A stretch of 64,000 nucleotides of DNA from a virus, in the IMG/VR virus record IMGVR_UViG_3300028048_000061, positions 32,001-96,000 of that record. The stretch is one strand, 5' to 3'. Every line of letters begins with the position of its first letter. Position 1 is the first letter of the stretch. Positions 9,071-64,000 of this stretch are shown piece after piece. Position numbers and translations under genes: made by a program. The notes under the pieces were generated by a model, which was given only the letters and a program-made list of their open reading frames with translations, made no database searches and was not told the origin of the DNA.

Positions 9071-9598
9071 ATGACAGAATATCGTACATTATTAAGTAAC
9101 TTCATTAAAAAGTCAAACACATCAGGACTAATCAAAAACAATGGAACTGTTGACACAACAACTTATGCCACATTGAATCAAGTGTATCCAGTTGGCTCAA
9201 TTTATATGAGCATAAACTCGACAGACCCATCAACATTGTTCGGTGGTTCTTGGACGAGATTGAAAGACACATTCCTTTTGGCTTGTGGTGATACATACAG
9301 TTCTGATGGAGATGTTGCGACATCACAACATGGAAGTGCTACTGTAACCTTAACATCTGGACAAAGTGGAGTTCCTGCCCACTCACACAAATATCAAGAT
9401 TACAACACCACCTACACATTAAAGACAACAAATCGTAAACCAGGAACTTCAACTGCCGTTGCATATGGTACAAGTTTGACTGCTGGTGGTGGTGCAACAG
9501 AAAGAACATCAAGCAACAACTCTGCTGCTAATGCAAGTCAAGCACACGAGAACATGCCTCCTTACATGGCGGTATATATGTGGAAGCGAATATCATAA
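9071..9598 (+). CDS. Phage baseplate/tail-collar-type protein (gp10 C-terminal-like)
   Basis: YPVGSIYMS..DPSTLFGGSW..FLL..AHSH..HENMPPYMAVYMWKR signature. Confidence 0.75.
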   Translation: MTEYRTLLSNFIKKSNTSGLIKNNGTVDTTTYATLNQVYPVGSIYMSINSTDPSTLFGGSWTRLKDTFLLACGDTYSSDGDVATSQHGSATVTLTSGQSGVPAHSHKYQDYNTTYTLKTTNRKPGTSTAVAYGTSLTAGGGATERTSSNNSAANASQAHENMPPYMAVYMWKRIS

Positions 9599-9612
9599 AA
9601 AAGGTGAGATTA

Positions 9613-11181
9613 ATGAGCAACGAACTTATAATAAAAATAGAAGCCAATCAGACAAATGGAATGAGGGTATCAGAATTAAATCTTGATGGTTCAAACATTA
9701 CCATTGATTGGGGAGATTCAACTATTGATGATTATTCGGAATCCATAGAACACGAATATGATGAAGAAGGCGAGTACACCATAACAATAACTGGAGTGTC
9801 TGGAATACATGCTGGTTTGTTATATGGTGTTGGAAATGTTGTAGAAGTCATTATCCCAAACAACATAACAACATTGTCAAACAGTGTTTTTAGGGGGTGC
9901 GGTAATCTTGAAAAAGTGGTTTTGCCAAATGGAATATCCTCAATTGGAAATAGGTTTTGCTATGATTGTTCAAATCTTGTTGAAATCAACTTGCCTGATG
10001 GACTTGAAGATATAGGAACTTATTTCTTATCTGGGTGTGGATTGGACGAAGTTGTGTTCCCATATGGATTATCTACAATTAGAACCAGAGCATTGTTGGG
10101 TAGTAATGTGAGCAATGTTGTAATTCCAAAATCTGTAACAAGCATTGGAGATTATGCATTTCAAGATTGTCGAAACTTATCATATATTGAAATACCAAAT
10201 AGTGTTGAGTCAATAGGCGCTTTGTTCGGTAAAGGTTCTTCATTGACAACAATCAAATTCCATTCAGAAACACCGCCGACAATGGGCGAAGGTCTGATGA
10301 TGGGTAATTTTGATTGCAGTTTTCATGTTCCAGAAGGAAGTCGTGTTAACTATATGAATACAACAGGTTATCCAACTTCATCTACAAGATATGTTGAATA
10401 TCCTACATTGAAAAGCAAATTGGTTGGCTTAGGCAAAATATTAGAAGACAAACTATTGGATGATGGGATTGCAGCTGACTGGACTGATGGGTTGAACACT
10501 TTAGCAGACGATGTATCAAGGATAGGTGAAGAAGATATTTTAGGGGTAGGAACTATCAATACAACTGCCTTGGATTTTAGAAATTTGGTTAATCAAGTAA
10601 ATGTACCATCAAATGTTACTGAAATTGGGGATAGAAGTTTTGTATGGTTTAATATAACATCTTGCACATTACCAAATGGACTAACATCAATAGGGTCATA
10701 TGCATTTTATCACTCAAAATTGAATACATTAACCATTCCAAGCACTGTTTCAACGATAGGTACATATGCTTTTGGATATACAAACTTAACAACAATAACC
10801 ATTCCTGCAAATGTCCAAATATTAGATTACAGTACATTCCGTAACTGTTCAAGTTTAGTTGAAGTATCTTTTGCTTCAAATTCATCATTGACAACAATAA
10901 AGGACTATGCTTTTTGTTATTGTTACTCTCTTCAAGAAATCGATATACCTTCAGGAGTTACATCAATAGGGTATCGTGCTTTTTGGAGATGCAACAGTCT
11001 TCAAAAGATAAAATTCAACAGTACAACTCCTCCAACATTGGATGCAGAAGCGATTTCAGATTCATATTGGCAATTGCCGACAACTTGTATTATCGAAGTT
11101 CCACAAGGTCGTCTTAATACATACAAAAATGCGACGAACTATCCAGACCCAAGTGTTTACACATATGTAGAGAGTGATTAA
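9613..11181 (+). CDS. BspA-type leucine-rich repeat (LRR_5) protein with a PKD-like N-terminus
   Basis: Multiple L..I.IP..VTSIG.YAF..C repeats; TIDWGD motif; RBS AGGTGA before ATG 9613. Confidence 0.85.
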   Translation: MSNELIIKIEANQTNGMRVSELNLDGSNITIDWGDSTIDDYSESIEHEYDEEGEYTITITGVSGIHAGLLYGVGNVVEVIIPNNITTLSNSVFRGCGNLEKVVLPNGISSIGNRFCYDCSNLVEINLPDGLEDIGTYFLSGCGLDEVVFPYGLSTIRTRALLGSNVSNVVIPKSVTSIGDYAFQDCRNLSYIEIPNSVESIGALFGKGSSLTTIKFHSETPPTMGEGLMMGNFDCSFHVPEGSRVNYMNTTGYPTSSTRYVEYPTLKSKLVGLGKILEDKLLDDGIAADWTDGLNTLADDVSRIGEEDILGVGTINTTALDFRNLVNQVNVPSNVTEIGDRSFVWFNITSCTLPNGLTSIGSYAFYHSKLNTLTIPSTVSTIGTYAFGYTNLTTITIPANVQILDYSTFRNCSSLVEVSFASNSSLTTIKDYAFCYCYSLQEIDIPSGVTSIGYRAFWRCNSLQKIKFNSTTPPTLDAEAISDSYWQLPTTCIIEVPQGRLNTYKNATNYPDPSVYTYVESD

Positions 11182-11183
11182 AA

Positions 11184-11309
11184 ATGACAGTAACACATAC
11201 TATAAGCAAAACAAGAGCAAAAGTTGGAGAAACAGTAACAGTATCAACATCAGGGATTGAAGCTGGAGTGATGAATAATGAGTACAATAACAGCAAAAGT
11301 CGATTTTAA
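11184..11309 (+). pseudogene. 41-codon remnant ORF (MTVTHTISKTRAKVGETVTVS...), possible truncated adhesin gene
   Basis: ATG 2 nt after the upstream stop; Ig-like beta-strand start; out of frame with and overlapping the next gene's RBS and start. Confidence 0.35.
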
Positions 11310-13590
11310 CCCATATATGCAAAGAGAGTTACCTCTTCCAAACATAAACGGTACAAATATACAAGTGGACTGGGGAGACGGAAGCCAAATAGAAACATTC
11401 GCCAATGGAACAGGAAATGCCACACATTCCTATACAAACAACCAGAACCATGATTACAAATATGAAATAATCATAACAGGTGACATAACAGGATTAGGGA
11501 ACGATGCATTCCGTTCGTTTTATTATGTTGAAGTCAAATTGCCCGAAGGAATAACAACCATTGGAAATGCCTGTTTCAGAGAAAGCAGAGTGGAGCAACT
11601 GACAATCCCAAAAACAGTTACGAGCATAGGAGACGAATTCAACTACAGAAACACAGCACTGAAAACATTAACAATAAATGGGAACAGCCTAACCACAATA
11701 GGTACAGATTTCTGTTTCGTAGCATCAAGCCTTGCTACACTGAAACTCCCTGACAGCATAACAAATATAGGAATAAGAGCATTCAGTGCTTGCACTTCCT
11801 TGAAAGAATTCCCAGTCCCCCGAAACTTGACAGGGTTTTCAAGATATTTCTTGCAGAATGCCTCACCTGACTTAATATTAAAATTCAAAAATGGACCAAT
11901 AAGCAACCCACCAATCAATACAAATACAAAAATAATTGTACCATTAAATAAATTACAGGATTTCATTAACCATTCAAGTTACCCTAACGAAAGAGAAAGA
12001 TATGATGTATTTGGAAAAAATTTATCAGAAAAGGTTTATGTTTTAGGAGTGCATTTGGCAGAAAATCTTCAGGATAAAAATATTGTCGCAAGTGCAAATG
12101 ATGGATTGACTACATTGGCAAACAAAATCCCAAAAACAGTTATAACTCAACCAAATTCAAGAAAGACATCATTTGATGAAATACCTGTTGATATAAGGAT
12201 TCCACAAAATGTAACTTCATTAAAAGATTATTGTTTTGGAAAATACGATGCAAATCGTTATTTTGGAATGGTTAATTTAAGAAAAATTGAACTTCCACAA
12301 CAATTAACTTCAATAGGAAAACATGCATTCACATCTTGTGTCAACCTTGAAAAAATAAAGTTCACAAGCACCACACCTCCAACAGTAGATGAAACGACAT
12401 TTTCAGCATTGCCAACTAATTGTATCATAGAAGTTCCATATTCAACCATTCAGACATATCAATCAACACAATATTACCCTAATCCAAAATTTTACCATTA
12501 TAAGGAAACAATATCTGATTCAAACATTGGATTTTTCCACGATGAAAATAATTGGAACAACGACCCAAAGATAAATATAAGTCAAGAAAAGATAACAACA
12601 AATGATATGATATGGTTAAACTCACAGTTTACAACAAGCCAATCTTATATATTGACATTTGATGTTATCTGCACAAAACAGAATAATAATGGAATATTGC
12701 TATTCAGTACATCACAAAGCTTAAATGACTCTGGATATTATATCTATTCTGCAAATTCCAAAACATATGTTTTTGATGGAGAAACAACAAGCCAAATAAA
12801 TAAAGAATACTTAAATTATGGCATTCATAGAATTAAAATAGATTGCTTAAGAAATAATGCTTCCATTGAAATAGATGGTGAGATTGTCATTGATAATTTA
12901 AATGTTTCAAATTTACCCAATACAATAGGATTGAAAGCATCAGATGGAGGGAACATAAGCATTTCAAACATTGACTTGATTGAATATGAATGCATTTACC
13001 ATGACAAATGCAACAGTTCAAGCAATCTGTCAAATTATGGTTCTGCAATTCATATCCATGGGAATGATAAAAATCTTGATTGCCAATTGACATATAATTC
13101 ATCAGGACAATATTATAATTTTGGTGTTCCAGGTGTTGGAACAAATCAATCATTTAGACCAATAACTTCATTAAACAATAAGTCTACAAGTTTTAAAGTA
13201 ATAATGAAATGTCATGGTGGGAACAGTAGTGTAGGATTTGTAGCATATGGCGATTCTTCAAACTTTTGCTATTTTGAATATAAAACATCATATGGTTACC
13301 TTGATGGTGGAGGCAAAATAAATGGAACCTCTTTAATAAGTGGTGGAACAGTATTAGGTCTACAAGAAAACTTAATAGAAATAATTCCTGCAACACTTGA
13401 AATCCATGTTGATATGGAAAATCTAACTATGAGGTGCATAGGCAAATGGGAAAATGAAGAAAAACCATACACTTATACATACCAAATACCATCAAATGTA
13501 ACGAAATTTGGTTTATATACTTCACAAGCATCTAATGGTACATATGGTCTTGGAAACATATATGATATAAAAATTATAGAAAGCATATAA
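11278..13590 (+). CDS. BspA-type LRR protein with C-terminal lectin/ConA-like beta-sandwich domains
   Basis: QVDWGDGS, LRR_5 repeats, LG..LAENL..K.I.AS..DGLTTLANKI motif (related copy in the upstream LRR gene), two beta-rich C-terminal domains. Confidence 0.75.
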   Translation: MSTITAKVDFNPYMQRELPLPNINGTNIQVDWGDGSQIETFANGTGNATHSYTNNQNHDYKYEIIITGDITGLGNDAFRSFYYVEVKLPEGITTIGNACFRESRVEQLTIPKTVTSIGDEFNYRNTALKTLTINGNSLTTIGTDFCFVASSLATLKLPDSITNIGIRAFSACTSLKEFPVPRNLTGFSRYFLQNASPDLILKFKNGPISNPPINTNTKIIVPLNKLQDFINHSSYPNERERYDVFGKNLSEKVYVLGVHLAENLQDKNIVASANDGLTTLANKIPKTVITQPNSRKTSFDEIPVDIRIPQNVTSLKDYCFGKYDANRYFGMVNLRKIELPQQLTSIGKHAFTSCVNLEKIKFTSTTPPTVDETTFSALPTNCIIEVPYSTIQTYQSTQYYPNPKFYHYKETISDSNIGFFHDENNWNNDPKINISQEKITTNDMIWLNSQFTTSQSYILTFDVICTKQNNNGILLFSTSQSLNDSGYYIYSANSKTYVFDGETTSQINKEYLNYGIHRIKIDCLRNNASIEIDGEIVIDNLNVSNLPNTIGLKASDGGNISISNIDLIEYECIYHDKCNSSSNLSNYGSAIHIHGNDKNLDCQLTYNSSGQYYNFGVPGVGTNQSFRPITSLNNKSTSFKVIMKCHGGNSSVGFVAYGDSSNFCYFEYKTSYGYLDGGGKINGTSLISGGTVLGLQENLIEIIPATLEIHVDMENLTMRCIGKWENEEKPYTYTYQIPSNVTKFGLYTSQASNGTYGLGNIYDIKIIESI

Positions 13591-39636: not shown

Positions 39637-39678
39637 GAGAAAAAATATACAAAAGTTTTCTCACTATTAGAGAAAAAA

Positions 39679-39776
39679 TGGAGTTGAGAGGATTTGAACC
39701 TCCGCGTTCTACCTTCGGCAGCGCTCTGGCCTATATATATCTGCCGGCAGATAACCCAAACCTGAGCTACAACTCC
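39679..39776 (-). ncRNA. tRNA-like RNA lacking an anticodon loop, with a 26-nt D-loop insertion (YrlA/Y-RNA-like candidate or tRNA pseudogene)
   Basis: Minus strand: perfect GGAGTTG/CAACTCC acceptor stem, GCTC/GAGC D stem, GGAGG-TTCAAAT-CCTCT T arm; anticodon arm is only CTGCC-GAA-GGTAG. Confidence 0.75.
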
Positions 39777-39782
39777 AAAAAA

Positions 39783-43420: not shown

Positions 43421-43984
43421 TTAATCCTCTAACTTAATCCAATGTGTGAATAAATTTTGTAAAAATTTCTTAATAACTATTCTTCTAGCCATCGCTTCAA
43501 TATGTTCTTCGTTTGTGTTTAGAGAGCTATATTTGTTATAAGCATTTGTGTATACAAAATCATATACTGGATTATAGCGAACTAATTTATGAGATATTCT
43601 CAAAAGCAACTTGTGCAAGTTTTTATTATAATTTTGAGCATTAGGATACATACCAGCATACGCCAATAAATTATTTGATGTATTAAATTTTCTGATGTCC
43701 TTAATCTCACATACTAACTCTGCTGAATCATAAAGATTAATTCCATTAACGTGTCGAAGGAATATGTTATAGATAGGAATTGTCTCTAAAAAACGAGATA
43801 TTTCGTTTCCTACTTCTAACAAAGCCAAATCTAAGGGATTAATCACTTGATTAATTAACTTGTCTTTGCCTTTTTCATTAAATAATTTATTATTTTTGAT
43901 TCTTGAATAATTTGATTTTTTCGATGTATGAAGATTTTTAGAAATATTAATCAATATTTTTAAAGCTTCAATATTCTCGTTCAT
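43421..43984 (-). CDS. IS110 Transposase_20-like (HhH/Tnp) domain-only protein
   Basis: FLRHVNGINLYDSAELVCEIKDIRKFNTSNNLLAYAGMYP matches the IS110 C-terminal domain pattern; no RuvC-like N-terminal domain. Confidence 0.6.
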   Translation of the reverse strand: MNENIEALKILINISKNLHTSKKSNYSRIKNNKLFNEKGKDKLINQVINPLDLALLEVGNEISRFLETIPIYNIFLRHVNGINLYDSAELVCEIKDIRKFNTSNNLLAYAGMYPNAQNYNKNLHKLLLRISHKLVRYNPVYDFVYTNAYNKYSSLNTNEEHIEAMARRIVIKKFLQNLFTHWIKLED

Positions 43985-43996
43985 TGTTACACCTCT

Positions 43997-44263
43997 TTAT
44001 CTTCCGATTTCGTGTCGAATTAAATACCAAAATTCTTCCATAAATGTTAATTTATTCCCCTCTTCTTTTCGTTTTTGCTTGTTTGTTTTTCTATCTTTAA
44101 AGTCATCTTTGTCAAGACCAATCATCTTCATATATTCGGAGACATAAGATGTCGCAACATTAAATTCTCTTCCTATTTCTTCTAAAGTGTATCCTTCTTC
44201 TAAAAATTGTTTTAATTTGTCAACTGGCAATTTTTTGCGTGGTCTAAACTTTCTTTTACTCAT
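43997..44263 (-). CDS. Helix-turn-helix DNA-binding protein
   Basis: LEEGYTLEEIGREFNVATSYVSEYM. Confidence 0.65.
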   Translation of the reverse strand: MSKRKFRPRKKLPVDKLKQFLEEGYTLEEIGREFNVATSYVSEYMKMIGLDKDDFKDRKTNKQKRKEEGNKLTFMEEFWYLIRHEIGR

Positions 44264-44966
44264 TTTTCACACCATTTTCGTATACTTGTTTTAATTCCTT
44301 AATGTTAGCAACCATTGAATTTCCAACGCCTTTGATTTTCAACAAGTCTTCTCTGGAAGCATTTAATACAGCCTCAGGAGAACCAAACTCATCTAATAAC
44401 ATTTTGGCTTTTTGAAAGCCGATATTATCTTGTGCTGCTAAAATTTTAATATCTGGGCGAGCCTTCATTCCTCCACTCAAAGACATAGACTCTAATGCTC
44501 TGCCATGATGTTTAGCAACAGTTTCTGCTATCATAAGAGCTAGCTTTAAATATTGTTTTTCATCAGAAACAAAAAATATAGGCAATTTGTAAAACAACAT
44601 TAAATTGGCCGTCATTTTATCAACAGAGTCCTGAGAAATCCTCCTTAGTGCGGAAACTCTTTGAAGGTCTCGTATATTTCCGTGAACGATGCAAGCATAA
44701 TAATTATATTCAGATAATCGTATCGCTTGGTCTTGAATATGATTGTTTTTAATGTAGCTGCTAACATAATCAGAAAATGATTTTCTTTCGATGTATACTT
44801 TCTCTTGATTTTGAAGCAAGAATACCAAGTCGCCATCTTTAAGTGTTTTAATTTCGGCTATGATATGACGGCCACTAAAAAACGACAAAGCTTTTTTTGC
44901 CATTTTTTGTTCGCGAGAATCTACAAGAACCTTTGATACCAATTGCTTTTTAGTCAGAAATACCAT
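44256..44966 (-). CDS. ERCC4/XPF-family nuclease with tandem HhH motifs
   Basis: VDSRE, GD, IERKS..DY catalytic motifs; NIGFQKA and IKGVGNS HhH motifs; start refined to 44966 (RBS GGAGG). Confidence 0.9.
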   Translation of the reverse strand: MVFLTKKQLVSKVLVDSREQKMAKKALSFFSGRHIIAEIKTLKDGDLVFLLQNQEKVYIERKSFSDYVSSYIKNNHIQDQAIRLSEYNYYACIVHGNIRDLQRVSALRRISQDSVDKMTANLMLFYKLPIFFVSDEKQYLKLALMIAETVAKHHGRALESMSLSGGMKARPDIKILAAQDNIGFQKAKMLLDEFGSPEAVLNASREDLLKIKGVGNSMVANIKELKQVYENGVKNE

Positions 44967-45474
44967 CTCCTCCAAACAAGCTATCCATAGATTGTTGAAT
45001 ATTAACTCGCACCCTATCTCTCCAATCATCGTCTAAATCATTAACAAAGTCTTGATATGATGATGATATTATTTCGTGTAAAAAGTCATAAGTAAGGTCA
45101 TCAATCTTTTTTTGAGTTAAAAAGGGACAGTTTTCCATTACATCATATTTTTGAAAGAATCCAGATTCAGACATATCGCCTGTAAATGCACAAACCCAAC
45201 ATACCCCATTGTCTCTTTTTGCAAAACAATTATTGCATTGTGTTGGGATATCTAACGAAGAACGACTAATATCTATCTTCTCGATATCTTGAAGCCTATC
45301 TTTAATTTGCTTCAATATATCAAATGCAACAACTGCCTTTATTAACTGATATGACATTTCTTGAGTATTTTCTGCAATACTCTTGTCTGTGTTGATATGA
45401 TATACACTAGACATTCCATATTGTTTCTGAATATAATCTAATATAGCGTCCACATCTTTTTTATCATATATCAT
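44950..45474 (-). CDS. Hypothetical protein with a Cys cluster
   Basis: CNNC..CWVC..C; start refined. Confidence 0.5.
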   Translation of the reverse strand: MIYDKKDVDAILDYIQKQYGMSSVYHINTDKSIAENTQEMSYQLIKAVVAFDILKQIKDRLQDIEKIDISRSSLDIPTQCNNCFAKRDNGVCWVCAFTGDMSESGFFQKYDVMENCPFLTQKKIDDLTYDFLHEIISSSYQDFVNDLDDDWRDRVRVNIQQSMDSLFGGDGISD

Positions 45475-46037: not shown

Positions 46038-48446
46038 CTATAATTGTAATGCTTGTATAATATCAACAAAAGGCGCATTCATATCTGTCTTGTTAAAAAA
46101 TAAAATGCTACCGTCTAAAATATCAAAAGACTCGTATCCACAAACTAGTTGTCCATCAAGGCTATATTCTTCATTAATATATAAACTAAAAGATACACAA
46201 TTATTGCCCTTTTTTGAAACAAATGATGATGCATCTTTTGTTATGCCAATATTATAATCTGGATTGTCCTTTTGCAAATTCTCTAATATCTCATATGTAT
46301 TTCCAGTAAACAAAGAATATTCTGAAGAATATTTATTCATATTTTTTAATTCAATTAGAGAAATTAATGATAATTTTGAGCCTTCCTTTTTAATCTTAAG
46401 TAATACTGGCTCGCCAACACTTTGTAGTGTATCTAAATAGCGAGTAATACCCCCTTGAGAAACATATATAGATTCGTTAGCGATATTATCAGTAACACTT
46501 AAGAACGCATAGTTTGTTTTAATTTTTAAAGAAGAAATCATTGTTTTTACGAAATAAATACCTTCTTCAACATCTTTAATCTCAGATAATGATAATATAG
46601 CTTCTGTTGTATTTATCTCATAACAAGAGAGTAAATTCTTTTTTGGATTCAATGATAATACACTAAATTCATTAAAGAGCTTTTCTTCTTCTGTCCAATG
46701 TTCATTTTCGGTTTCGTCAAACAAATGCATCAAATAACCCCTATCTGGATTAAAAGAGTCAAATGCTCCAGCTTTTAATAAAGCTTTAACAACCTTCTTA
46801 TTGACTTTTCGAGAATCTTTTCTTTCTAAAAAATCATTGAAATTATAATACGGTTGATTACTAATGATTGATTCAACAGCCTTTTCACCAACACCTTTAA
46901 TAAGATTAAAAGATAAATAAACATTATTATCATTTGTAGATACAATGGTATCTTTAGAAATGTTAATATCTGGATTATGAATAAGATAACCAGAGTTTTT
47001 CATTTCATTATAAATCTGCATTCTTTTGTCTTCGTTATCTGTGTTGTTTAATAGAGCGATATAAAATTCAATCGGATAATATGTTTTTAAATAACCAGTA
47101 ATATAAGTTAAAGCCGTATAAGACACGGCGTGTGCTTTATTAAAGGAATAAGAGGCACTTGCCTCCATTTTTTTAAAGACAGTTTCTGCAATATCTTGAG
47201 AGATTCCTCTATCTAAACAAGCTTGAATGAATTTTGGATAATACTCATCAAAAATGGCTTGAATTTTTTTACCGATACCTTTTCTAATGGTGTCTGCGTC
47301 CGCAGCTGACATCCCAGCAAAATCCGTAACAATCCTCATTGCTTGTTCTTGATAAACAATTGCTCCATAAGTCTTTTCCAAGATAGGTTCAAGTAATGGA
47401 TGGTCATATTCCACACTCTCCAACCCAAATTTCCTATTAATATAATGTTTTGTATCTCCAGAGTCTTGAGCTCCCGGCCTTGCCAATGCAGTTACGTCTG
47501 TTAATTCCTCAAAGTTTCTTGGTTGAATTTGGCGACAAGTTTCTGCAACCCCAGCTCCCTCAAATTGGAAGAGGCCTAATTGAGACTTATTAATTGTATC
47601 ATAAACACGTTCGTCATCATATGTAGATGGCAATCGAATATGTTTATTTAACTCCATTGCATCAGCAACAATGGTTAGTGTATTGAGCCCAAGCATATCT
47701 TGTTTTAACATGGATAAACTATCACAAGTTCTTCCATCTATATCAAGACATTCTACACCATTAATTTTTAATATAGAAGTGTATTTTTCAACAGAATCTG
47801 GTAATATAATATTTGCTCCAGCGTGAATACCATAAGTCTTTATCAATCCTTTTAAATCTTCGTAATTATCTCTAATAAATGGATTAGCGTTTAGGAAGGA
47901 TATCACTTCAAACGGTAAAGAATCTTCGTCAACGATTAAACCAGTTATCTTATTTACGTATTGAAAATCTAACCCAATAATACGTGCTAAATCTTTAATT
48001 GCGGTTTTGGCCGTCCAAGATAATTTATTAATGACTTGATAACTTTTATTTGACCCAAAATCTTGTTTAATTTGTTTCAAAATAGCTTGTCTTTTATCTC
48101 TAGGGATATCTACATCAATATCAGGATTTGCAATAGACGCTACTCTTGTTGGGTTTAAAAAACGCTCAAAAATTAAACTATGTTTAATAGGGTCAATATC
48201 TGTAATCTGTAAACAATAACAAACCAAGCTTCCAGCAGCACTTCCTCTGCCTCTATTTACAACAATTCCTTGAGATTTAAGTTTACAAACAATATATGCA
48301 GTATTTAAAAAGAAATCTTCAAGATTTCCACTATAAATAACATCTAATTCATAATTAAGACGTTTAACATAGTTAAAATCTTCTATAAAACCTCTTCTTT
48401 CAAGCCCTTCAAAACATTTTTTTCTTAAAAAATCTTTATTATCCAT
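46038..48446 (-). CDS. dnaE: Family C DNA polymerase (DnaE-like) catalytic subunit lacking the PHP domain
   Basis: GRGSAAGSLVCYCL.IT.IDP, FERFLNP, PDIDVD, KQDMLGL, GLFQFE, YSFNKAHA, HhH and OB fold; likely start 48446 after GGTGA. Confidence 0.95.
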   Translation of the reverse strand: MDNKDFLRKKCFEGLERRGFIEDFNYVKRLNYELDVIYSGNLEDFFLNTAYIVCKLKSQGIVVNRGRGSAAGSLVCYCLQITDIDPIKHSLIFERFLNPTRVASIANPDIDVDIPRDKRQAILKQIKQDFGSNKSYQVINKLSWTAKTAIKDLARIIGLDFQYVNKITGLIVDEDSLPFEVISFLNANPFIRDNYEDLKGLIKTYGIHAGANIILPDSVEKYTSILKINGVECLDIDGRTCDSLSMLKQDMLGLNTLTIVADAMELNKHIRLPSTYDDERVYDTINKSQLGLFQFEGAGVAETCRQIQPRNFEELTDVTALARPGAQDSGDTKHYINRKFGLESVEYDHPLLEPILEKTYGAIVYQEQAMRIVTDFAGMSAADADTIRKGIGKKIQAIFDEYYPKFIQACLDRGISQDIAETVFKKMEASASYSFNKAHAVSYTALTYITGYLKTYYPIEFYIALLNNTDNEDKRMQIYNEMKNSGYLIHNPDINISKDTIVSTNDNNVYLSFNLIKGVGEKAVESIISNQPYYNFNDFLERKDSRKVNKKVVKALLKAGAFDSFNPDRGYLMHLFDETENEHWTEEEKLFNEFSVLSLNPKKNLLSCYEINTTEAILSLSEIKDVEEGIYFVKTMISSLKIKTNYAFLSVTDNIANESIYVSQGGITRYLDTLQSVGEPVLLKIKKEGSKLSLISLIELKNMNKYSSEYSLFTGNTYEILENLQKDNPDYNIGITKDASSFVSKKGNNCVSFSLYINEEYSLDGQLVCGYESFDILDGSILFFNKTDMNAPFVDIIQALQL

Positions 48447-48451
48447 TAACA

Positions 48452-49369
48452 TCACCATATTTTTGAAAAGATTTCATCAAATTCCTTATGTTTAGTAAAG
48501 ACAGGTATTTTATCTGATTTATCACGAATTGATGCATTGCATCTATTTGCAATGACATATGTTTGCTCGAGAGCATTGTTAACAACATTTATATCTTCAA
48601 AGCCAGATTGAATGGCATTATTTCGAATAATTTCTGCTGACCCAACGCAATTTGAATCCATACTTTCGTTAACGTCAGCCAACTTTTTATGCCAACTAAT
48701 TGATTGGACAATTCTTCTTAAATTTTTATCAGTTTTGTCTACAAAGTGTGAATCGCAAGAAACTGTCAAAGGAATGCCATAACTTTCTGATAATGTCACC
48801 AATTTTTCATTGATAATTTTTTGGTCATCATATAAAGGGTGGAATTGTAGTTCAAGAGAAAAGTTATGATTAAAAATGTCGTCAAACAACAAAACGTAAT
48901 CCTCTGCCTTATCAATATTCTCGTCCAAAATACTTCTTGCTATGCTACCAAGAGAGCACGCACTTGTGCAATAAATCCCATCAGTAGGATATGTTTTTAA
49001 ACACTCATATGACAATATAGGTTTATAATAAAAATTTTCCACAGCAATACGTTGAAAACGTCGAATATTTTCCAATCCTTCTTGATTCATTGCGAGCATT
49101 ACTAAATGATATCTATCACGTGTTTTTGCTTCATTATATGAATCTCTACAATAAAACTCATTGCCAAAAATCGGTTTTATTTCATTATCTTGCATTACTT
49201 GGTCAAACTCAATCCATCCAGCACAACTAGAATGGTCAGTAATAGCACAAGCTTTTTGGTTATACTCCTTGAGCTTCATAGCTAACTTAGGAATCTTTAT
49301 AACAGAATCTTGTATGCTATACATACTATGTAAATGCAAATTAACAAAATCAGAATCTTTAAACGTCAT
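48452..49369 (-). CDS. PHP domain of DNA polymerase III alpha, encoded as a separate gene
   Basis: HLHSMYSIQD, AITDH, KPIFGNE, HLVMLAMN..G, SCDSHF metal ligands. Confidence 0.9.
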   Translation of the reverse strand: MTFKDSDFVNLHLHSMYSIQDSVIKIPKLAMKLKEYNQKACAITDHSSCAGWIEFDQVMQDNEIKPIFGNEFYCRDSYNEAKTRDRYHLVMLAMNQEGLENIRRFQRIAVENFYYKPILSYECLKTYPTDGIYCTSACSLGSIARSILDENIDKAEDYVLLFDDIFNHNFSLELQFHPLYDDQKIINEKLVTLSESYGIPLTVSCDSHFVDKTDKNLRRIVQSISWHKKLADVNESMDSNCVGSAEIIRNNAIQSGFEDINVVNNALEQTYVIANRCNASIRDKSDKIPVFTKHKEFDEIFSKIW

Positions 49370-51310: not shown

Positions 51311-52663
51311 TTATGGGGATTCTGTTTGATTATTTGCTTCGATTTCAAAACCATCAACAATGGCATTTCCATCGTAAACGGCTTTAACATACATTACATC
51401 ATCTTCTTGTAATCCGTAATTATTAAGATTAATTGATATATAGTCTGTGCTTGTTATTAGAGAATATACTCCGTTTAAAAATGTTACATCATATTTGGTA
51501 GCTGTATAAAAAGGTAGACCACCATCTAAAGTTCCCCAATTTCCTTGATTATTTTTCAAATAAAAATTGATACTACCATATGTATGAGCTAACATATTAA
51601 AGCCACTATCCTCTGTACAAAAAGTATTACCAGAAACTTGTTCTACGTCGAAAGAAAGACTAGTCTCAAAACCACTTAATAAACCATTAACATCTAGGGC
51701 TATATTAGTGGGTTCTGTGGTAAAAATTTGAGTGCTTTTTGTTGCGGAGTCAGAAGACACAAAGCTATTTCCTTCAAATATTGCTTGTATAACAATCTCT
51801 GTATTTCGATATTCTTGAGGAACAACAATATCAATAGCACTTGTAGTTTGATTTTCTACTTTCCGAAGATTACTTGAACCTAAAAAAACACTATCTTGGT
51901 CTTTATGTAGATAAAACAAAACCTTTCCAGCCAATAAGCTTGACTCATCAATATCTAATCCTAAATTTCTAAATCCATCAACCAAATTAGTATTACCCAT
52001 CGATATCTTATATGCTATACGAACCCCACCATCTGTATTAATACATTCATTTACAGTTGATGTTGTATTGCTTATTTGATTTCCGTGCAAATCAATAAGT
52101 ACATATTTTGATGTTGATTTTCTATATATCTTGTTTCCTAAATACTCAAAATGCAAAATTATTTGTTCATCACTAAATACAGGAGTATCAAAATGATAAT
52201 TAAATGTAGCTTCACCTTGTCTATTTGTTATCGCAGAAGCCACAGATTCAGATGGATTATTACTTAGGTACATAAATACAGATTGATTTTTTAACGGCTC
52301 ATTAGTTTCAGAATCTACTAATTTTATTTTAATCTGACTATTAACGTCTGTTAAAGATTCCTCTGTAATATCAGTTAAAATATCAATTTTTGTTGGAGCA
52401 TAATCCTTAACAAAAATATCTCCATCCAATGCTGACATATACTTATCGTTTTCGACATCATAATATAATTGAGAACGAATAACAAAATTCTTATAGACAA
52501 CAGCTCCATTTTGTGTATTTGTTTCCTTCAAATACAATGTAATCTCTTCATAATCACATTCTTGAGCTACATCATAGTCTATAATACAAATGTTAATATT
52601 TAAATCATTTGCATTTTGTTTTAATATATGTAATATTTTCTTAAAACGTGTTGTATTAATCAT
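51311..52663 (-). CDS. Ig-like domain protein (methanogen adhesin-like)
   Basis: KIKLVDSETNEPLKNQSV..AITNRQGEATF..F.YLG and A.FEGN repeats. Confidence 0.55.
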   Translation of the reverse strand: MINTTRFKKILHILKQNANDLNINICIIDYDVAQECDYEEITLYLKETNTQNGAVVYKNFVIRSQLYYDVENDKYMSALDGDIFVKDYAPTKIDILTDITEESLTDVNSQIKIKLVDSETNEPLKNQSVFMYLSNNPSESVASAITNRQGEATFNYHFDTPVFSDEQIILHFEYLGNKIYRKSTSKYVLIDLHGNQISNTTSTVNECINTDGGVRIAYKISMGNTNLVDGFRNLGLDIDESSLLAGKVLFYLHKDQDSVFLGSSNLRKVENQTTSAIDIVVPQEYRNTEIVIQAIFEGNSFVSSDSATKSTQIFTTEPTNIALDVNGLLSGFETSLSFDVEQVSGNTFCTEDSGFNMLAHTYGSINFYLKNNQGNWGTLDGGLPFYTATKYDVTFLNGVYSLITSTDYISINLNNYGLQEDDVMYVKAVYDGNAIVDGFEIEANNQTESP

Positions 52664-54154: not shown

Positions 54155-55276
54155 TTAATAATTATCTTCAAAATATTTATCGGCTAATTCAATAGCAGAA
54201 ACAATATTGTCATTCTTGGTGCTATTCTTATTGAAAATTTGCAATAAGTCATATGCAAAGACGGCCTCATTTTTAGACACCTTTTGTTCTAACATTTCTT
54301 GAAGAGAGGAAATTGATTGTTCGTGCAATAATTCACCATCTTCATCGTTGTCAACGTCATTTGATACAACAACATTTAATCTTAAGCAATCATCACTAAT
54401 AATATTTGCTATTTCGTGAGCTCTCTCTACATCAAATGACTGAAAAGATAACTCAACAATCGGTTTTCTTAGGCTTTTGATATTTTCTTTAATTGTCTTT
54501 ATGCTATCTTCATCAACATTTTCAAAAAAATAAAACTGACGGAATAATGGAATGTTAACCCAGCCACATTGATTTTTCTCTGTATCCAAGATATAAAATC
54601 CTTTGCCTCTATTTATAGCATCTCTTGCTTCTGTAACAGAGCTTCTTTCAATAGAGCCGGGATAGATGATTTGACAATTGTTATGTTCTCTTGCGATACG
54701 AGAATGCAAATGCCCAATGAAAATATAATCAAAATCATTATATGGTAAATCTTCCTCTGTCAATTCTGCTCCATAAATCAAGTCAAGGTCTACAGCTTGG
54801 TGCAATAGCAAAACTTTTAAACCATTATGCTTTTTGGATGCTTCAACGTGTTTTTGAATAACTTCCAATAAATCTGTCTTGTTGGATTCTGAACGATATT
54901 TTGCCCCAGCAATAAACACATCACCAATTGTGATATGGGTGTCATCTAAAGATGTCGCCTCAGAAATCTTAAAAAACAAATCATCGGGGCTCATAAAATT
55001 TTTCTTTCTAATTATAGTATGATTTCCAGTAATAGAATAATATTGAATATCTGCTTCTTGTAATTTGGCCAATCCTTTCTCGTATTCATATAAAGCGATT
55101 GAAGAAGGGATATGAGTATCAAAAATATCCCCTAACTGCAAGATTACATCTATATTCTTTCTGCTAATAATATCATCTATGATTTGATTCCATCTTTGAT
55201 AAAAGTCTTGTTCTCTTTCATCAAGGCCATATTGTCTATACCCCAAATGTAAATCTCCTATGATTGCTATGTTCAT
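54155..55276 (-). CDS. mre11: Mre11/SbcD nuclease
   Basis: GDLHLG, LGDIFD, ITGNH, LLHQ, GHLH, YPGS..E phosphoesterase motifs. Confidence 0.95.
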   Translation of the reverse strand: MNIAIIGDLHLGYRQYGLDEREQDFYQRWNQIIDDIISRKNIDVILQLGDIFDTHIPSSIALYEYEKGLAKLQEADIQYYSITGNHTIIRKKNFMSPDDLFFKISEATSLDDTHITIGDVFIAGAKYRSESNKTDLLEVIQKHVEASKKHNGLKVLLLHQAVDLDLIYGAELTEEDLPYNDFDYIFIGHLHSRIAREHNNCQIIYPGSIERSSVTEARDAINRGKGFYILDTEKNQCGWVNIPLFRQFYFFENVDEDSIKTIKENIKSLRKPIVELSFQSFDVERAHEIANIISDDCLRLNVVVSNDVDNDEDGELLHEQSISSLQEMLEQKVSKNEAVFAYDLLQIFNKNSTKNDNIVSAIELADKYFEDNY

Positions 55277-58829: not shown

Positions 58830-58852
58830 ATTTTTTATAGTATATAAATGTT
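58830..58852 (-). promoter_or_regulatory. Conserved viral promoter motif (copy 2)
   Basis: Exact 23-bp copy, upstream of the helicase. Confidence 0.8.
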
Positions 58853-61229
58853 ATACTATAATGGATTGTCCATTTTTCTTCTCAACAATAATGACATTTG
58901 TGGCAGCGTTTTCTAACTCTGCATCGTGAGTGATAATAATCATTTGTGGAACAAGAGAAATGCTTTGAATCACATTAACAAATTCTTGCTTTCTAAATCC
59001 ATCAAGATAAGTTGTCGGCTCGTCTAACAAGATAGTCTCAATTACATTAGCAGTAATTGCACTAGCAATTCCTAATCTTAAAGATAACGCAATAGCAATT
59101 TTTTCTCCACCACTCGCCATTGATATATCGCTTTCTCCAGATGGACCAACGATATTGATGTCATAATCTTCAGATAAAACTAGTCCAGAATAATCAAAAT
59201 CAAATTTACTAAAGAAATCTTGAGTATATTTTTCAATCTGCGGCCTAAATGCTAATCTGATATCCTTTTGAAGGCCATCTTTTGAATAAATTTCACGAAT
59301 ATCTTTTAAAAACTTAATAAACTCATCTAATTTCTTGACTTGTTCTTTATTTAATTTATTTTGCTTGATTTTATCGTCAAGAGTTTTAATTTGAGATTCT
59401 GTATATTTAATATTGTTCTCAAGCTGGCCGACTTCCTTCACTAAAGGATAATATTGATTATGCAATTGAGATTGCTGTGCTTGATACTGTTGTAACAAGT
59501 CAGAGTCAAAACCTATACTTAAAATATCTTGATTAACTTCCTCTAATAAAGCTTCTTTTTCAGAATATTGTTTTAATAAGTTTTCGTGTTTTTCTCTCAT
59601 ATCTTGTTGGCTTTGAACAATTAATTTTGCTTGCTCATAGTCCTTATTCTTTGCCAATAAGGTATTATAAATATTATGAATGTCATATTCTTTTTCTAAA
59701 TAATTATCGTCAAGCTCTAATTCTTCTGCTATCTTTTTCATTGTCATGTCCAAATCTGATATAGATTGTTTTTGTTCAGAAACATTTTGTTGAATCTTAT
59801 CAATCATATCTGTAGATATGACACCTTTTTCAATTTGAGAAACAAACGCTTGTTTTTCTTTTAACATTTCTGATAATTCATTATACTCTGTCTTTAAAAC
59901 AACAAGTTCTTTATTTCTCTTCTCTAGCTTATCTGTATCCTCTGCAATCAAGGCAGAATAGTTATCAATCATCTCTTGTTTGTGTTCATCATCAATCTGA
60001 GACTGACAAATAGGGCAAACACTTTGAACAGTATTTAAAGAATCAATAATCTCATTATTATTTGCTATAAGTGTATTTAAAACACTAATTTTAGCTGATA
60101 AATTCTTGATTTGTTCATCAATATTGTTTTTTGCATTGAGAGTTTGTTCATAATCTTTGCCAACAATCTCTTGTAATTTCAAAAATCCTTGCTTATCATA
60201 ATTATCTATTCCAACAATATTGTCAATTTTATATATTTCACAAATATTATTGATAAAATAAATATCAGCAAGAGCTTCTTCAAGTTCAATTGACACAGTA
60301 TGATAATCGTGAACATACTGTTTTCTTGTTTCCAAAGAATTTACAAGGCCTTCATATACCTTGATTGTCTCTTCAATCCCTTTGTTTTCATCGATAAAAT
60401 CTTCATATTGTTTGATATTTTGAGTATATTTATTTGCCTCTTCAATATCTTTTGACAACAACTCAAGCTCTCCTAATAAACGTTGTTGTGTAATATGAGA
60501 TTGATGAAATTTTACACTAAGAGCGTTTTGTTCATTTACTTTCTCTTTTATATCAGACATTTGTTTTTGCAATATATCCAATGCATTGCTTTTGTCATCA
60601 AATTGACTTTTTAAAGAGTTTTTTTCTTCAATCAAAGCATCTTTATTATCTGCAATGCTATCATCTATAAGACCATTAAGCTGTGTTCGTTTCAATTCAT
60701 AATTTGAAATTACATTTGCTATATCTTTATATGAAGTCTCCAAATTATCTAATCTTAATAATTTAGAGATATTTTTCTTACGTTCAGATGCCTTTTGTGT
60801 AACAAGACTATCAATTTCCCCTTGTCTAATATAAATCGCGTTCAAGAACAAATCTGCATCTATTTCCAATAACTCTTCAATATAATTATTAACCTCTTTA
60901 TCTCCAGATACAACACTATTATAATTGTTTTCTTGTAAAACAAACAACTCTGCTGTTGATTTCTTTTGGCTACGAGTTCTTTTGACTTTATATTCTTGAT
61001 TGCCAATCAAAAAAGATAAAGTTACAATCATACTATCTGATTGTGTATTTATCAAGTCATTTAATGACTTTGTATTATATTTTTTATACAATGCAAAGTT
61101 AATGCCTTCAAAGATAGATGATTTTCCAGCTCCATTATCACCCAATATGATTGTAGTACCTTTATTAAACTCAATTTCTGTATTTATATGTGACTTAAAA
61201 TTCTGTAGCGTCAATTTTTTAAAAATCAT
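58851..61229 (-). CDS. rad50: Rad50/SbcC ATPase
   Basis: NFKSH, GDNGAGKSS, YIRQGEI, CPIC zinc hook, SGGEK, LLDEPT. Confidence 0.95.
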   Translation of the reverse strand: MIFKKLTLQNFKSHINTEIEFNKGTTIILGDNGAGKSSIFEGINFALYKKYNTKSLNDLINTQSDSMIVTLSFLIGNQEYKVKRTRSQKKSTAELFVLQENNYNSVVSGDKEVNNYIEELLEIDADLFLNAIYIRQGEIDSLVTQKASERKKNISKLLRLDNLETSYKDIANVISNYELKRTQLNGLIDDSIADNKDALIEEKNSLKSQFDDKSNALDILQKQMSDIKEKVNEQNALSVKFHQSHITQQRLLGELELLSKDIEEANKYTQNIKQYEDFIDENKGIEETIKVYEGLVNSLETRKQYVHDYHTVSIELEEALADIYFINNICEIYKIDNIVGIDNYDKQGFLKLQEIVGKDYEQTLNAKNNIDEQIKNLSAKISVLNTLIANNNEIIDSLNTVQSVCPICQSQIDDEHKQEMIDNYSALIAEDTDKLEKRNKELVVLKTEYNELSEMLKEKQAFVSQIEKGVISTDMIDKIQQNVSEQKQSISDLDMTMKKIAEELELDDNYLEKEYDIHNIYNTLLAKNKDYEQAKLIVQSQQDMREKHENLLKQYSEKEALLEEVNQDILSIGFDSDLLQQYQAQQSQLHNQYYPLVKEVGQLENNIKYTESQIKTLDDKIKQNKLNKEQVKKLDEFIKFLKDIREIYSKDGLQKDIRLAFRPQIEKYTQDFFSKFDFDYSGLVLSEDYDINIVGPSGESDISMASGGEKIAIALSLRLGIASAITANVIETILLDEPTTYLDGFRKQEFVNVIQSISLVPQMIIITHDAELENAATNVIIVEKKNGQSIIV

Positions 61230-63584: not shown

Positions 63585-63777
63585 CGAGAATCTCTTCCAT
63601 ATAGAAAATATCGGCCGTATTATTTAATACAAGCTCTAAACAAGAGGAATCTGAAAAATACACAACAATATGTGTTGGGTCTTCGTCCTCTGATACCATA
63701 ATTTCTTCAATTGTTTTGCCAAGTAAGATTTGATGATTAAAAAAATCATCCTCTGTTATAAAATCATTCGTCGACAT
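63577..63777 (-). CDS. Hypothetical acidic protein
   Basis: ORF with RBS GGAG. Confidence 0.45.
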   Translation of the reverse strand: MSTNDFITEDDFFNHQILLGKTIEEIMVSEDEDPTHIVVYFSDSSCLELVLNNTADIFYMEEILDD

Positions 63778-63961
63778 CGTCTTCTTCTCCCGATATGATA
63801 ATATCGTTATTTAATAAATCAACTAAAAATCTTGAATTTAATAAAATACCACGAGCTCTGTTAGACCTATAATTCTGTAAACGTCTTTGTTTTGGTTCTT
63901 TAAGGCCATATTCTTCTTGATATTGTTTTAATTCTCCCCACACTCCTTGTATGGTCATCAT
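63764..63961 (-). CDS. Hypothetical protein
   Basis: ORF in operon context. Confidence 0.45.
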   Translation of the reverse strand: MMTIQGVWGELKQYQEEYGLKEPKQRRLQNYRSNRARGILLNSRFLVDLLNNDIIISGEEDDVDE

Positions 63962-64000
63962 AATATTTTCAGTATTTTTATAGATTTCACGAATGTTCTT

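Follow-up and report, generated by a model that had tools for sequence, protein, structure and literature searches.

Two adjacent genes in a 64,000-nucleotide window of viral DNA (bases 32001-96000 of the 154,713-bp IMG/VR record IMGVR_UViG_3300028048_000061, with a CheckV completeness of about 90%) encode a PHP protein, P0001, and a DnaE polymerase core, P0002 (Table 1). We consider it probable that the two genes specify the subunits of one family C DNA polymerase, the replicase of a tailed Methanobrevibacter virus of about 155 kb. Family C polymerases have been described as exclusive to bacteriophages among viruses (PMC4889955, 2016), and archaeal viruses have been described as encoding family B enzymes (PMC11348598, 2024). 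In contrast to the statements of both surveys, the window, hundreds of its relatives and the cultured virus PhiF1 point to a whole lineage of methanogen viruses built on DnaE. Pol III subunits have been mentioned in passing for six DPANN viruses (PMC12647753), and no description of a split DnaE in methanogens or archaeal viruses was found in the full-text literature covered, which did not include Medvedeva et al. 2023. A methanogen virus with this two-gene layout is already public in the form of PhiF1, and this kind of enzyme is not new; the copies of both genes in Methanobrevibacter chromosomes are a new observation made here.

A family C polymerase encoded by two genes

The P0002 protein comprises palm, thumb, fingers and HhH domains and a family-specific C-terminal domain, and it lacks a PHP domain. 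By comparison with solved structures, its residues 5-580 aligned without a break to residues 286-902 of the E. coli Pol III alpha subunit, and residues 6-291 of P0001 matched residues 4-281 of the same protein as well as the N-terminal 280 residues, approximately, of Taq alpha. Because the two alignments cover alpha residues 4-281 and 286-902, the cut lies in the linker at the PHP/palm boundary. On PHROG 405, which has 1190 positions, the two proteins likewise match one after the other, P0001 at 40-339 and P0002 at 335-1081. The three catalytic aspartates that define a family C (DnaE) palm are present in P0002 as D113 and D115 (in PDIDVD), equivalent to D401 and D403 of E. coli, and D254 (in KQDMLGL), equivalent to D555; all three were invariant across 46 relatives, and the fingers and HhH domains follow the palm as they do in DnaE. 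What sets P0002 apart from DnaE is the PHP domain: it does not sit N-terminally on the same chain but forms a separate protein (305 aa in the window) family-wide.

All nine metal ligands of the PHP protein are in place (H12, H14, D21, H46, E71, H88, C138, D206 and H208), and this set fits the HHDHEH[C/H]DH pattern used for calling a PHP domain "active" (PMC12926913). The nine positions were 100% conserved across 116 stand-alone homologues of P0001, and the C-terminal tail of the protein is conserved in the family as well (...F-x-x-[LI]-F-x-x-x-W-stop). No intein domain was found in P0001 or P0002 with Pfam, and no large insertion was seen in the alignments.

At the junction, the TGA stop codon of the PHP gene (48454-48452) overlaps by 7 nt the core gene if the latter starts at the ATG at 48458. 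This stop codon sits within a Shine-Dalgarno (SD)-like GGTGAT (48456-48451), 4 nt before a second ATG at 48446, and the core could start at either ATG. The core is read in the -1 frame relative to the PHP gene. The end of the PHP protein (...SKIW-stop) and the start of the core (MVMLMDNK) both align directly onto contiguous E. coli sequence, and a run of five A residues lies 2 nt upstream of the overlap, where one extra A would merge both frames.

A word-seeded search recovered more than 120 clusters of PHP-less cores of about 800-830 amino acids, sharing 45-97% identity and located on contigs of up to 165 kb, together with 235 stand-alone PHP homologues of about 300 amino acids (E<=1e-10). 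In the six junctions that were read, the core start was offset by -13, -7, -7, -7, 0 and +3 nt, the PHP stop was TAA or TGA, and the core was in the -1 frame in four cases and in the PHP frame in the other two. The PHP gene ended at the same residue in all six, with a conserved tail (...L-F-E-x-x-E-W-stop), and relatives without a homopolymer at the junction showed an identical split. Because frames and offsets differ between junctions, no single frameshift or read-through mechanism fits them; the comparison points to two separate, translationally coupled genes rather than to a conserved frameshift site.

The assembly of both proteins was modelled with core residues 1-600 and the PHP protein, each with its family alignment. 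The modelled complex had an ipSAE of 0.84, compared with 0.00 for the best control; 58 of 80 solved complexes attained this mark, as did 2 of 110 mismatched pairs. The model runs agreed in at least 94% of the contacts, with a partner pLDDT of at least 91, and the contacts with the lowest error joined the PHP tail (residues 283-305) to core helices 7-21 and 45-62. The model thus supports a heterodimer, and the pass may reflect likeness to the solved structures of single-chain DnaE.

According to the mechanism that we propose, the PHP and core genes would be co-transcribed and translationally coupled through the overlap of stop and start with the SD-like GGTGAT. The 305-aa PHP protein is predicted to dock on the N-terminal palm/thumb face of the 806-aa core, mainly via its conserved C-terminal tail, and the docked model rebuilds the architecture of single-chain Pol III alpha. 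The PHP domain of the DnaE1 polymerases of Taq and M. tuberculosis carries out proofreading. On that basis, and because the nine ligands are intact and DnaQ was not found in the virus record, the PHP protein would supply a metal-dependent 3'-5' proofreading activity.

Several claims of the initial annotation could be assessed at this point. It had reported clear DnaE motifs, which was borne out by the Pfam matches and the aspartates in place, and a separate upstream PHP gene with intact metal ligands, which the homologues confirmed. Its statement that the PHP stop overlaps the SD sequence of the catalytic gene is a fair reading of the junction, and its statement that no intein is present holds. 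The doubt that it had raised about a frameshift error at the junction is settled by the comparison of relatives, in which more than 120 core clusters, 235 PHP proteins and varied junctions indicate a genuine split. Its suggestion that the stand-alone PHP protein is the likely proofreader is consistent with the retention of every ligand, this protein being the sole candidate in a record with no DnaQ/RNase_T match.

Relatives, host and chromosomal copies

An exhaustive HMMER search of 1.84 billion representatives returned a small set of proteins with the family-specific C-terminal domain and, after them, thousands of ordinary bacterial DnaEs that matched only residues ~5-585 of P0002, at 33-40% identity. 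When P0002 was compared with the GTDB representative genomes, only bacterial chromosomal DnaEs were matched (31-37% identity). A quick LG+G4 tree was computed for 74 cores, and in it the methanogen-virus DnaE family formed one clade of 24 rows (SH-aLRT 99) that included ORF57 of PhiF1 and left out every DnaE sampled from bacterial chromosomes (19), cultured phages (3) and other viruses. The enzyme thus appears to belong to an old monophyletic family of methanogen-virus DnaEs, and the split would go back to the ancestor of a large clade of Methanobacteriales viruses, PhiF1 among them.

All the DnaEs of cultured phages that were opened are single genes. In many uncultured phage contigs (IMG/VR loci L019-L059), DnaE is cut elsewhere, between palm and fingers, and the fingers and HhH open reading frame (ORF) then has about 520-690 amino acids. 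An arrangement of a PHP and palm ORF followed, 1.2 kb apart, by a fingers and HhH ORF was also observed in a contig binned in the same methanogen genus (L155:599-5828; G084:C27). The cores of the relatives P0069 and P0071 contain inteins with a LAGLIDADG domain. Inteins are frequent in this virus family (L166:11636-14394, L167:6001-9678 and L187:6785-10315), and the NrdD protein of one relative has two Intein_splicing matches.

The host of the virus is almost certainly an archaeon, and it is very likely to be a Methanobrevibacter. The record, whose GC content is 32%, encodes a histone-fold protein (PF00808, 3.4e-13). Its tRNA-Met, with an A1:U72 pair and a G-C-rich anticodon stem, is of the archaeal/eukaryotic initiator type, and its tRNA-Thr(UGU) carries at position 37/38 a 63-nt intron whose ends pair as an 8-bp helix. 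Two close core homologues are labelled "Methanobrevibacter sp." by NCBI, and the genus was searched in 103 genomes centred on the genome that holds one of them (MCR alpha was present in 18 of 31 sampled). The viral Rad50 DNA was 65-74% identical to Rad50 in all 103 genomes, and the viral initiator tRNA was 84-89% identical to its counterparts in 38 of 41. The initiator tRNA and the tRNA-Thr(UGU) belong to a tRNA cluster around the histone gene, outside the window (L002:5458-6898, genome coordinates). ARAGORN with the intron option reported a tRNA-Gly with a 27-nt insert (genome 71678-71777, window 39678-39777). Two 36-nt matches at 92% in the genus (G081:C32 and G016:C16) were considered as CRISPR spacers and rejected, being A-rich and having no adjoining repeat array.

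Copies of both polymerase genes were found in cellular contigs of the genus. A core of 800 amino acids, P0095, which is 47% identical to P0002, lies with an upstream 301-aa PHP gene on a 54.8-kb contig of the metagenome-assembled genome GCA_050872065.1 (G001). The pair is flanked by a sodium/solute symporter gene on one side and by ABC-transporter, FmdE, adenine glycosylase and NAC genes on the other, and this arrangement was independently assembled from three SRA runs. A second species-level genome (G032) has a pair at the same place, with about 90% nucleotide and 93% protein identity to that of G001, values similar to those of the flanking genes. The flanks were present in 101 of 101 genus genomes at 74-87% DNA identity, and the polymerase pair in G001 and G032 only. 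In G014, which lacks the pair, the interval contains only CMD, PNPOx, binding-protein and FecCD genes; in G032 it contains CMD, binding-protein and FecCD genes plus the pair.

The ratio of nonsynonymous to synonymous substitution (dN/dS) between G001 and G032 was 0.064 for the core and 0.068 for the PHP gene, with a dS of about 0.48. Both ratios indicate strong purifying selection, and the chromosomal copies keep the PHP ligands and the catalytic DxD intact. In the tree they are nested in the viral clade, next to the sub-clade of the window. Both genomes also carry PCNA. The simplest reading of these data is that just two genes were transferred from virus to host and then retained under selection; one branch of the viral clade would have moved into the Methanobrevibacter chromosome and been kept there. 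In a dominant gut and rumen methanogen, these copies represent a possible case of domestication of a viral replicase by its host.

The conserved module and the weighing of alternative readings

PolA, PolB, DnaQ/RNase_T, beta clamp, PCNA, clamp loader, DnaB and MCM gave no Pfam match in the ~90%-complete record, in searches whose controls worked. PF00712 and PF13177 in particular had no match, and a DnaG-type primase was not found in the record either; the presumed host carries PCNA. Only the polymerase thus appears to be bacterial-type. A 911-aa protein encoded across the end of the window (Table 1) is the likely viral primase, of the archaeo-eukaryotic primase (AEP) type: its residues 16-190 matched PHROG 1156 "DNA primase" (6.3e-10) and PHROG 3022 (5.4e-06), and an ESM-Atlas feature search led to Prim-Pol clusters at 0.95-0.98, the Pfam DNA_primase_S match being only 0.067. 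This candidate is possibly fused to a helicase. A 409-aa HNH-domain protein is encoded upstream of it. Priming would probably be carried out by this enzyme, with no bacterial replisome brought along, and the source of processivity might be the PCNA of the host, an unrecognised factor or the enzyme alone.

Table 1. Positions of the polymerase genes, their junction, their chromosomal counterparts and neighbouring genes (window coordinates unless a locus is given)
Feature	Position	Strand	Matches and remarks
PHP subunit gene (P0001, 305 aa)	48452..49369	-	Pfam PHP 2.7e-33
DnaE core gene (P0002, 806 aa)	46038..48458	-	Pfam DNA_pol3_alpha 1.7e-54, DNA_pol3_finger 6.9e-42, HHH_6 8.6e-21
Gene junction	48444..48458	-	ATG(48458)-GTG-ATG...ATG(48446), from sequence
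Chromosomal PHP (301 aa) + core (800 aa) pair	L142:5092-8403 (= G001:C33, contig JBNMGD010000003.1)
Chromosomal PHP + core pair, second species-level genome	L154:8309-11620 (G032:C10)
Small Cys-rich ORF, 132 aa	45464..45862	-	C-x2-C-G-x-C-C type; directly downstream of core
ERCC4/XPF-type nuclease, C-terminal HhH	44256..45029	-	Pfam ERCC4 1.1e-12, HHH_5 8.7e-07
Mre11-like phosphoesterase	54155..55276	-	Pfam Metallophos 2.7e-14; upstream end of conserved module
Rad50-like ATPase with zinc hook	58851..61229	-	Pfam SMC_N, AAA_23, Rad50_zn_hook
911-aa gene, 3' end in window	63764..64000, continuing as L004:764-3499	-	AEP-primase-like N-terminus; PHROG 1156, PHROG 3022

The polymerase genes belong to a module that the window shares with its relatives and that comprises Mre11, Rad50, an XPD-like helicase, PHP, core, the small Cys-rich ORF and ERCC4/XPF, with a dCTP-deaminase-like enzyme, an anaerobic ribonucleotide reductase (NrdD) and a rubrerythrin as further conserved genes. 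The ERCC4 nuclease gene was syntenic with the polymerase genes in all relatives examined (L166, L168, L169, L171 and L187), including PhiF1, where it is ORF54, and the Mre11-like gene has the same position in L166 and L168. Homologues of the small Cys-rich ORF follow the core in L166, L167, L168, L169 and L009 (29-41% identity, E 1e-10 to 1e-30), and this position is conserved in the viral family, the ORF being absent from the chromosomal copies. It has only a weak Pfam CxxCxxCC match (E 0.19), and it may encode a metal-cluster accessory factor of the polymerase. It is also the only module ORF with a canonical Q-x-x-L-x-x-Y-F near a terminus; this candidate PCNA-interacting protein (PIP) box was rejected, as it is not conserved in the homologues.

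PHROG and Pfam found nothing for ten small ORFs of the module, and an Atlas search with the 450-aa ORF at 51311-52663 gave only weak Ig-like leads. Between the XPF gene and the dCTP-deaminase-like gene is a 187-aa ORF (window 43421-43984, minus strand) that weakly matches (2.2e-05) Transposase_20, the C-terminal domain of IS110-family transposases, and a similar ORF stands at the same place in the relative L171. Two BspA-type leucine-rich-repeat proteins, which may be receptor-binding or adhesin-like, are encoded in the tail-gene region (window 9580-11181 and 11278-13590, plus strand; LRR_5 1.8e-76 and 2.1e-37). Outside the window, the record contains a choloylglycine (bile-salt) hydrolase gene that fits a gut habitat (Pfam CBAH 6.2e-48; L005:3544-4485, minus strand, genome 117544-118485), a DprA-like protein (DNA_processg_A 1.3e-36; L006:13253-13963) and two PcfJ-like proteins of about 450 amino acids (L005:9264-10625 and L006:7798-9147). 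Both ends of the record (L002:1-100 and the last 100 bases of L007) consist of short tandem repeats whose unit differs between the ends, and these could be assembly ends in repeat arrays or genuine terminal repeat islands.

Several observations weigh against the interpretation of the pair as the replicase of a Methanobrevibacter virus, or restrict it. The LG+G4 tree was built without an outgroup and its base is unsettled between bacteria and phages, so that it places neither the donor lineage nor the root. The ~10% of the record that is missing could hold a further polymerase or a clamp, and either might also have diverged beyond the reach of Pfam. When two segments of the virus, together 33 kb, were searched by BLAST against the 103 genus genomes, homologous genes but no CRISPR spacer-like match came up, and for this reason the assignment of the host to the genus rests on the likeness of genes and tRNAs. 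Finally, a fused relative (P0271, 1128 aa) with the same gene order is nested among split members, which implies that the split is not obligatory for function and suggests a secondary re-fusion.

The existence of P0271 also bears on the reality of the split. If a sequencing or assembly error in the A5 run had broken a single DnaE gene of about 1100 amino acids, an extra A just before the overlap would fuse the frames as they are fused in P0271. Nevertheless, the split recurs in over 100 clusters that are independent and come from many assemblies, in homopolymer-free relatives with four different offsets, in cultured PhiF1 and in two chromosomal copies under purifying selection, and such an error as the origin of the split has a negligible chance of being correct and appears already refuted by the comparison. 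It is very improbable that a programmed -1 frameshift or stop read-through joins the ORFs into a full-length DnaE beside or instead of the subunits. The -1 frame of the core and the A-rich stretch before the stop would suit the former, and the shared frame of the L142 and L168 ORFs, with only a stop between them, the latter; but a canonical slippery heptamer is absent, the frame relation varies (four members have the core at -1 and two have it in frame), most stops are TAA, every core has its own start codon, no single recoding mechanism is conserved, and read-through of the TGA in the window would reach a TAA two codons later. A phage of, say, a low-GC gut Firmicute that acquired a few archaeal-looking genes and has an ordinary DnaE is hardly to be expected at all. 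DnaEs abound in cultured phages, with 1427 matching phage records, BspA-type leucine-rich-repeat proteins and bile-salt-hydrolase-like genes are also common in gut bacteria, and a CRISPR link to an archaeon was not found. In contrast, the record has an archaeal histone, an A1:U72 initiator tRNA and a short tRNA intron at 37/38; its Rad50 and tRNA DNA resemble those of methanogen-genus genomes; the nearest cellular polymerase copies sit between core Methanobrevibacter genes; the family member PhiF1, in culture, infects Methanothermobacter; and most of the virus genes have no PHROG match.

The function of the pair could also be conceived differently. The abundance of recombination and repair genes in the module (Mre11, Rad50, XPD-like helicase and XPF) would suit a repair, recombination or translesion polymerase acting with Mre11, Rad50 and XPF while host PolB/PolD replicates the virus, or else an independent nuclease or phosphoesterase role of the PHP protein. 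Bacterial DnaE2 is an established precedent of a non-replicative family C enzyme, and an accessory role would suit the chromosomal copies, which persist in cells already equipped with replicases and PCNA. We regard this alternative as unlikely, since a virus of about 155 kb with a primase candidate, NrdD and a dCTP-deaminase-like enzyme is expected to encode a replicase, the pair is the only polymerase found in the record, the PHP protein keeps its ligands as replicative DnaE1 does, and the PHP and core genes, whose products are modelled to bind, always lie side by side. Rather unlikelier still is a reading of the PHP tail ([HY]-x-x-[LF]-[DN]-x-[LI]-F...W-stop) as a degenerate PIP box, exposed by the split to grip host PCNA. 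The tail is an extension of about 12 residues relative to E. coli and Taq alpha, exactly at the cut and conserved family-wide, its spacing is like x-x-x-hydrophobic-x-x-hydrophobic-F, and no clamp was found in the record. The HMMER alignment of P0002 ends at residue 902 of E. coli alpha, before the internal beta-binding motif, which we take to lie just past that residue, and only a short stretch separates the end of the alignable region from the C-terminal domain. Against a PIP box, the canonical Gln is absent, the fused P0271 keeps a similar segment internally, and the model buries tail residues 283-305 on core helices 7-21 and 45-62 with the lowest errors, which suggests a zipper between subunits.

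With a two-subunit viral replicase as the preferred interpretation, the remaining claims of the initial annotation can be placed. Its archaeal host is supported by the histone, the tRNA features and the Rad50 and tRNA likeness, most likely as Methanobrevibacter; of the host checks that it had called for, the tRNA comparison agreed with the genus through the initiator tRNA and the spacer comparison gave no match. It had described the capture of a bacteriophage-type replisome, and this did not stand, since clamp, loader, DnaB and DnaQ were not found and the primase candidate is AEP-type. Nor is a capture specific to this virus, or a recent one, compatible with a family that extends to PhiF1. The phylogeny that it had proposed placed the enzyme in a distinct clade and did not decide between a phage and a bacterium as donor, and its question about clamp and primase is answered in part, by the primase candidate, no clamp of either kind being found in the record.

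A wider proposal, to which we would give slightly less than an even chance, is that a family C polymerase is a working part of archaeal biology twice over, as the replicase of a large and abundant clade of Methanobacteriales viruses, acting without a bacterial accessory protein on histone-bearing DNA, perhaps with PCNA, and as a domesticated two-gene cellular enzyme in some Methanobrevibacter. If this is true, archaeal cells keep a functional polymerase of a class that textbooks hold to be exclusively bacterial. A DnaE naturally divided into proofreading and polymerase subunits would offer a natural system that bears on the function of a family C core without beta, tau and epsilon, on the contribution of PHP when it is supplied in trans, and on the movement of polymerases between domains of life.

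Comparison with known systems

The closest described counterpart is PhiF1 (MK994522.1), a 74-kb virus of the thermophile Methanothermobacter thermautotrophicus, whose ORF58 (QGH71214.1) and ORF57 (QGH71213.1) are both annotated as "putative DNA polymerase III DnaE superfamily protein". As in the window, the PHP domain has its own gene, which is placed directly upstream of the gene for a PHP-less core and overlaps it; the cut falls at the PHP/palm linker, the C-terminal domain is shared to the last residues (30% identity over residues 63-804 of P0002 by BLASTP), and an ERCC4 nuclease is encoded downstream, the pair being followed in PhiF1 by a PD-(D/E)XK nuclease and ERCC4. The PHP proteins are 30% identical. 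Both cores fall in the SH-aLRT 99 clade and share a common ancestry, in different sub-clades. In contrast to the window genes, ORF58 has 447 amino acids with an N-terminal family-4 uracil-DNA glycosylase domain (according to the note of the record), and ORF57, with 1176 amino acids, is interrupted after its GRG motif by an intein-like insertion of about 350 residues, which the window core does not have. The virus of the window has ~155 kb and 32% GC.

The bacterial Pol III alpha of the DnaE1 type (Taq, 2HPI; M. tuberculosis, 5LEW/7PU7) has the same domain order and catalytic residues, and it shares the full HHDHEHCDH set of PHP ligands, which is associated with intrinsic proofreading (motif from PMC12926913). 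Unlike the window enzyme, it is a single chain of ~1160-1220 amino acids that works with a beta clamp, tau and a clamp loader, of which the beta clamp and clamp loader were not found in the virus record; the identity between the two is about 33-37%, and nothing aligns after residue 580 of P0002. The DnaEs of Rhizobium phage RHph_X66, Bacillus phage Leo2 and Streptomyces phage Annadreamy (PHROG 405) are virus-encoded family C enzymes as well, but they are single genes for 1024-1123 amino acids, belong to phages with bacterial hosts and fall outside the methanogen-virus clade. Finally, the cyanobacterial split-intein DnaE (DnaE-n/DnaE-c) is another family C polymerase in two pieces. In such "fractured genes" the cut is inside the polymerase and the halves are rejoined by trans-splicing inteins (PMC2677866), whereas the window enzyme is cut at the PHP/palm linker with no intein motif or Pfam intein domain at the junction, and its PHP and core pieces are expected to stay separate.

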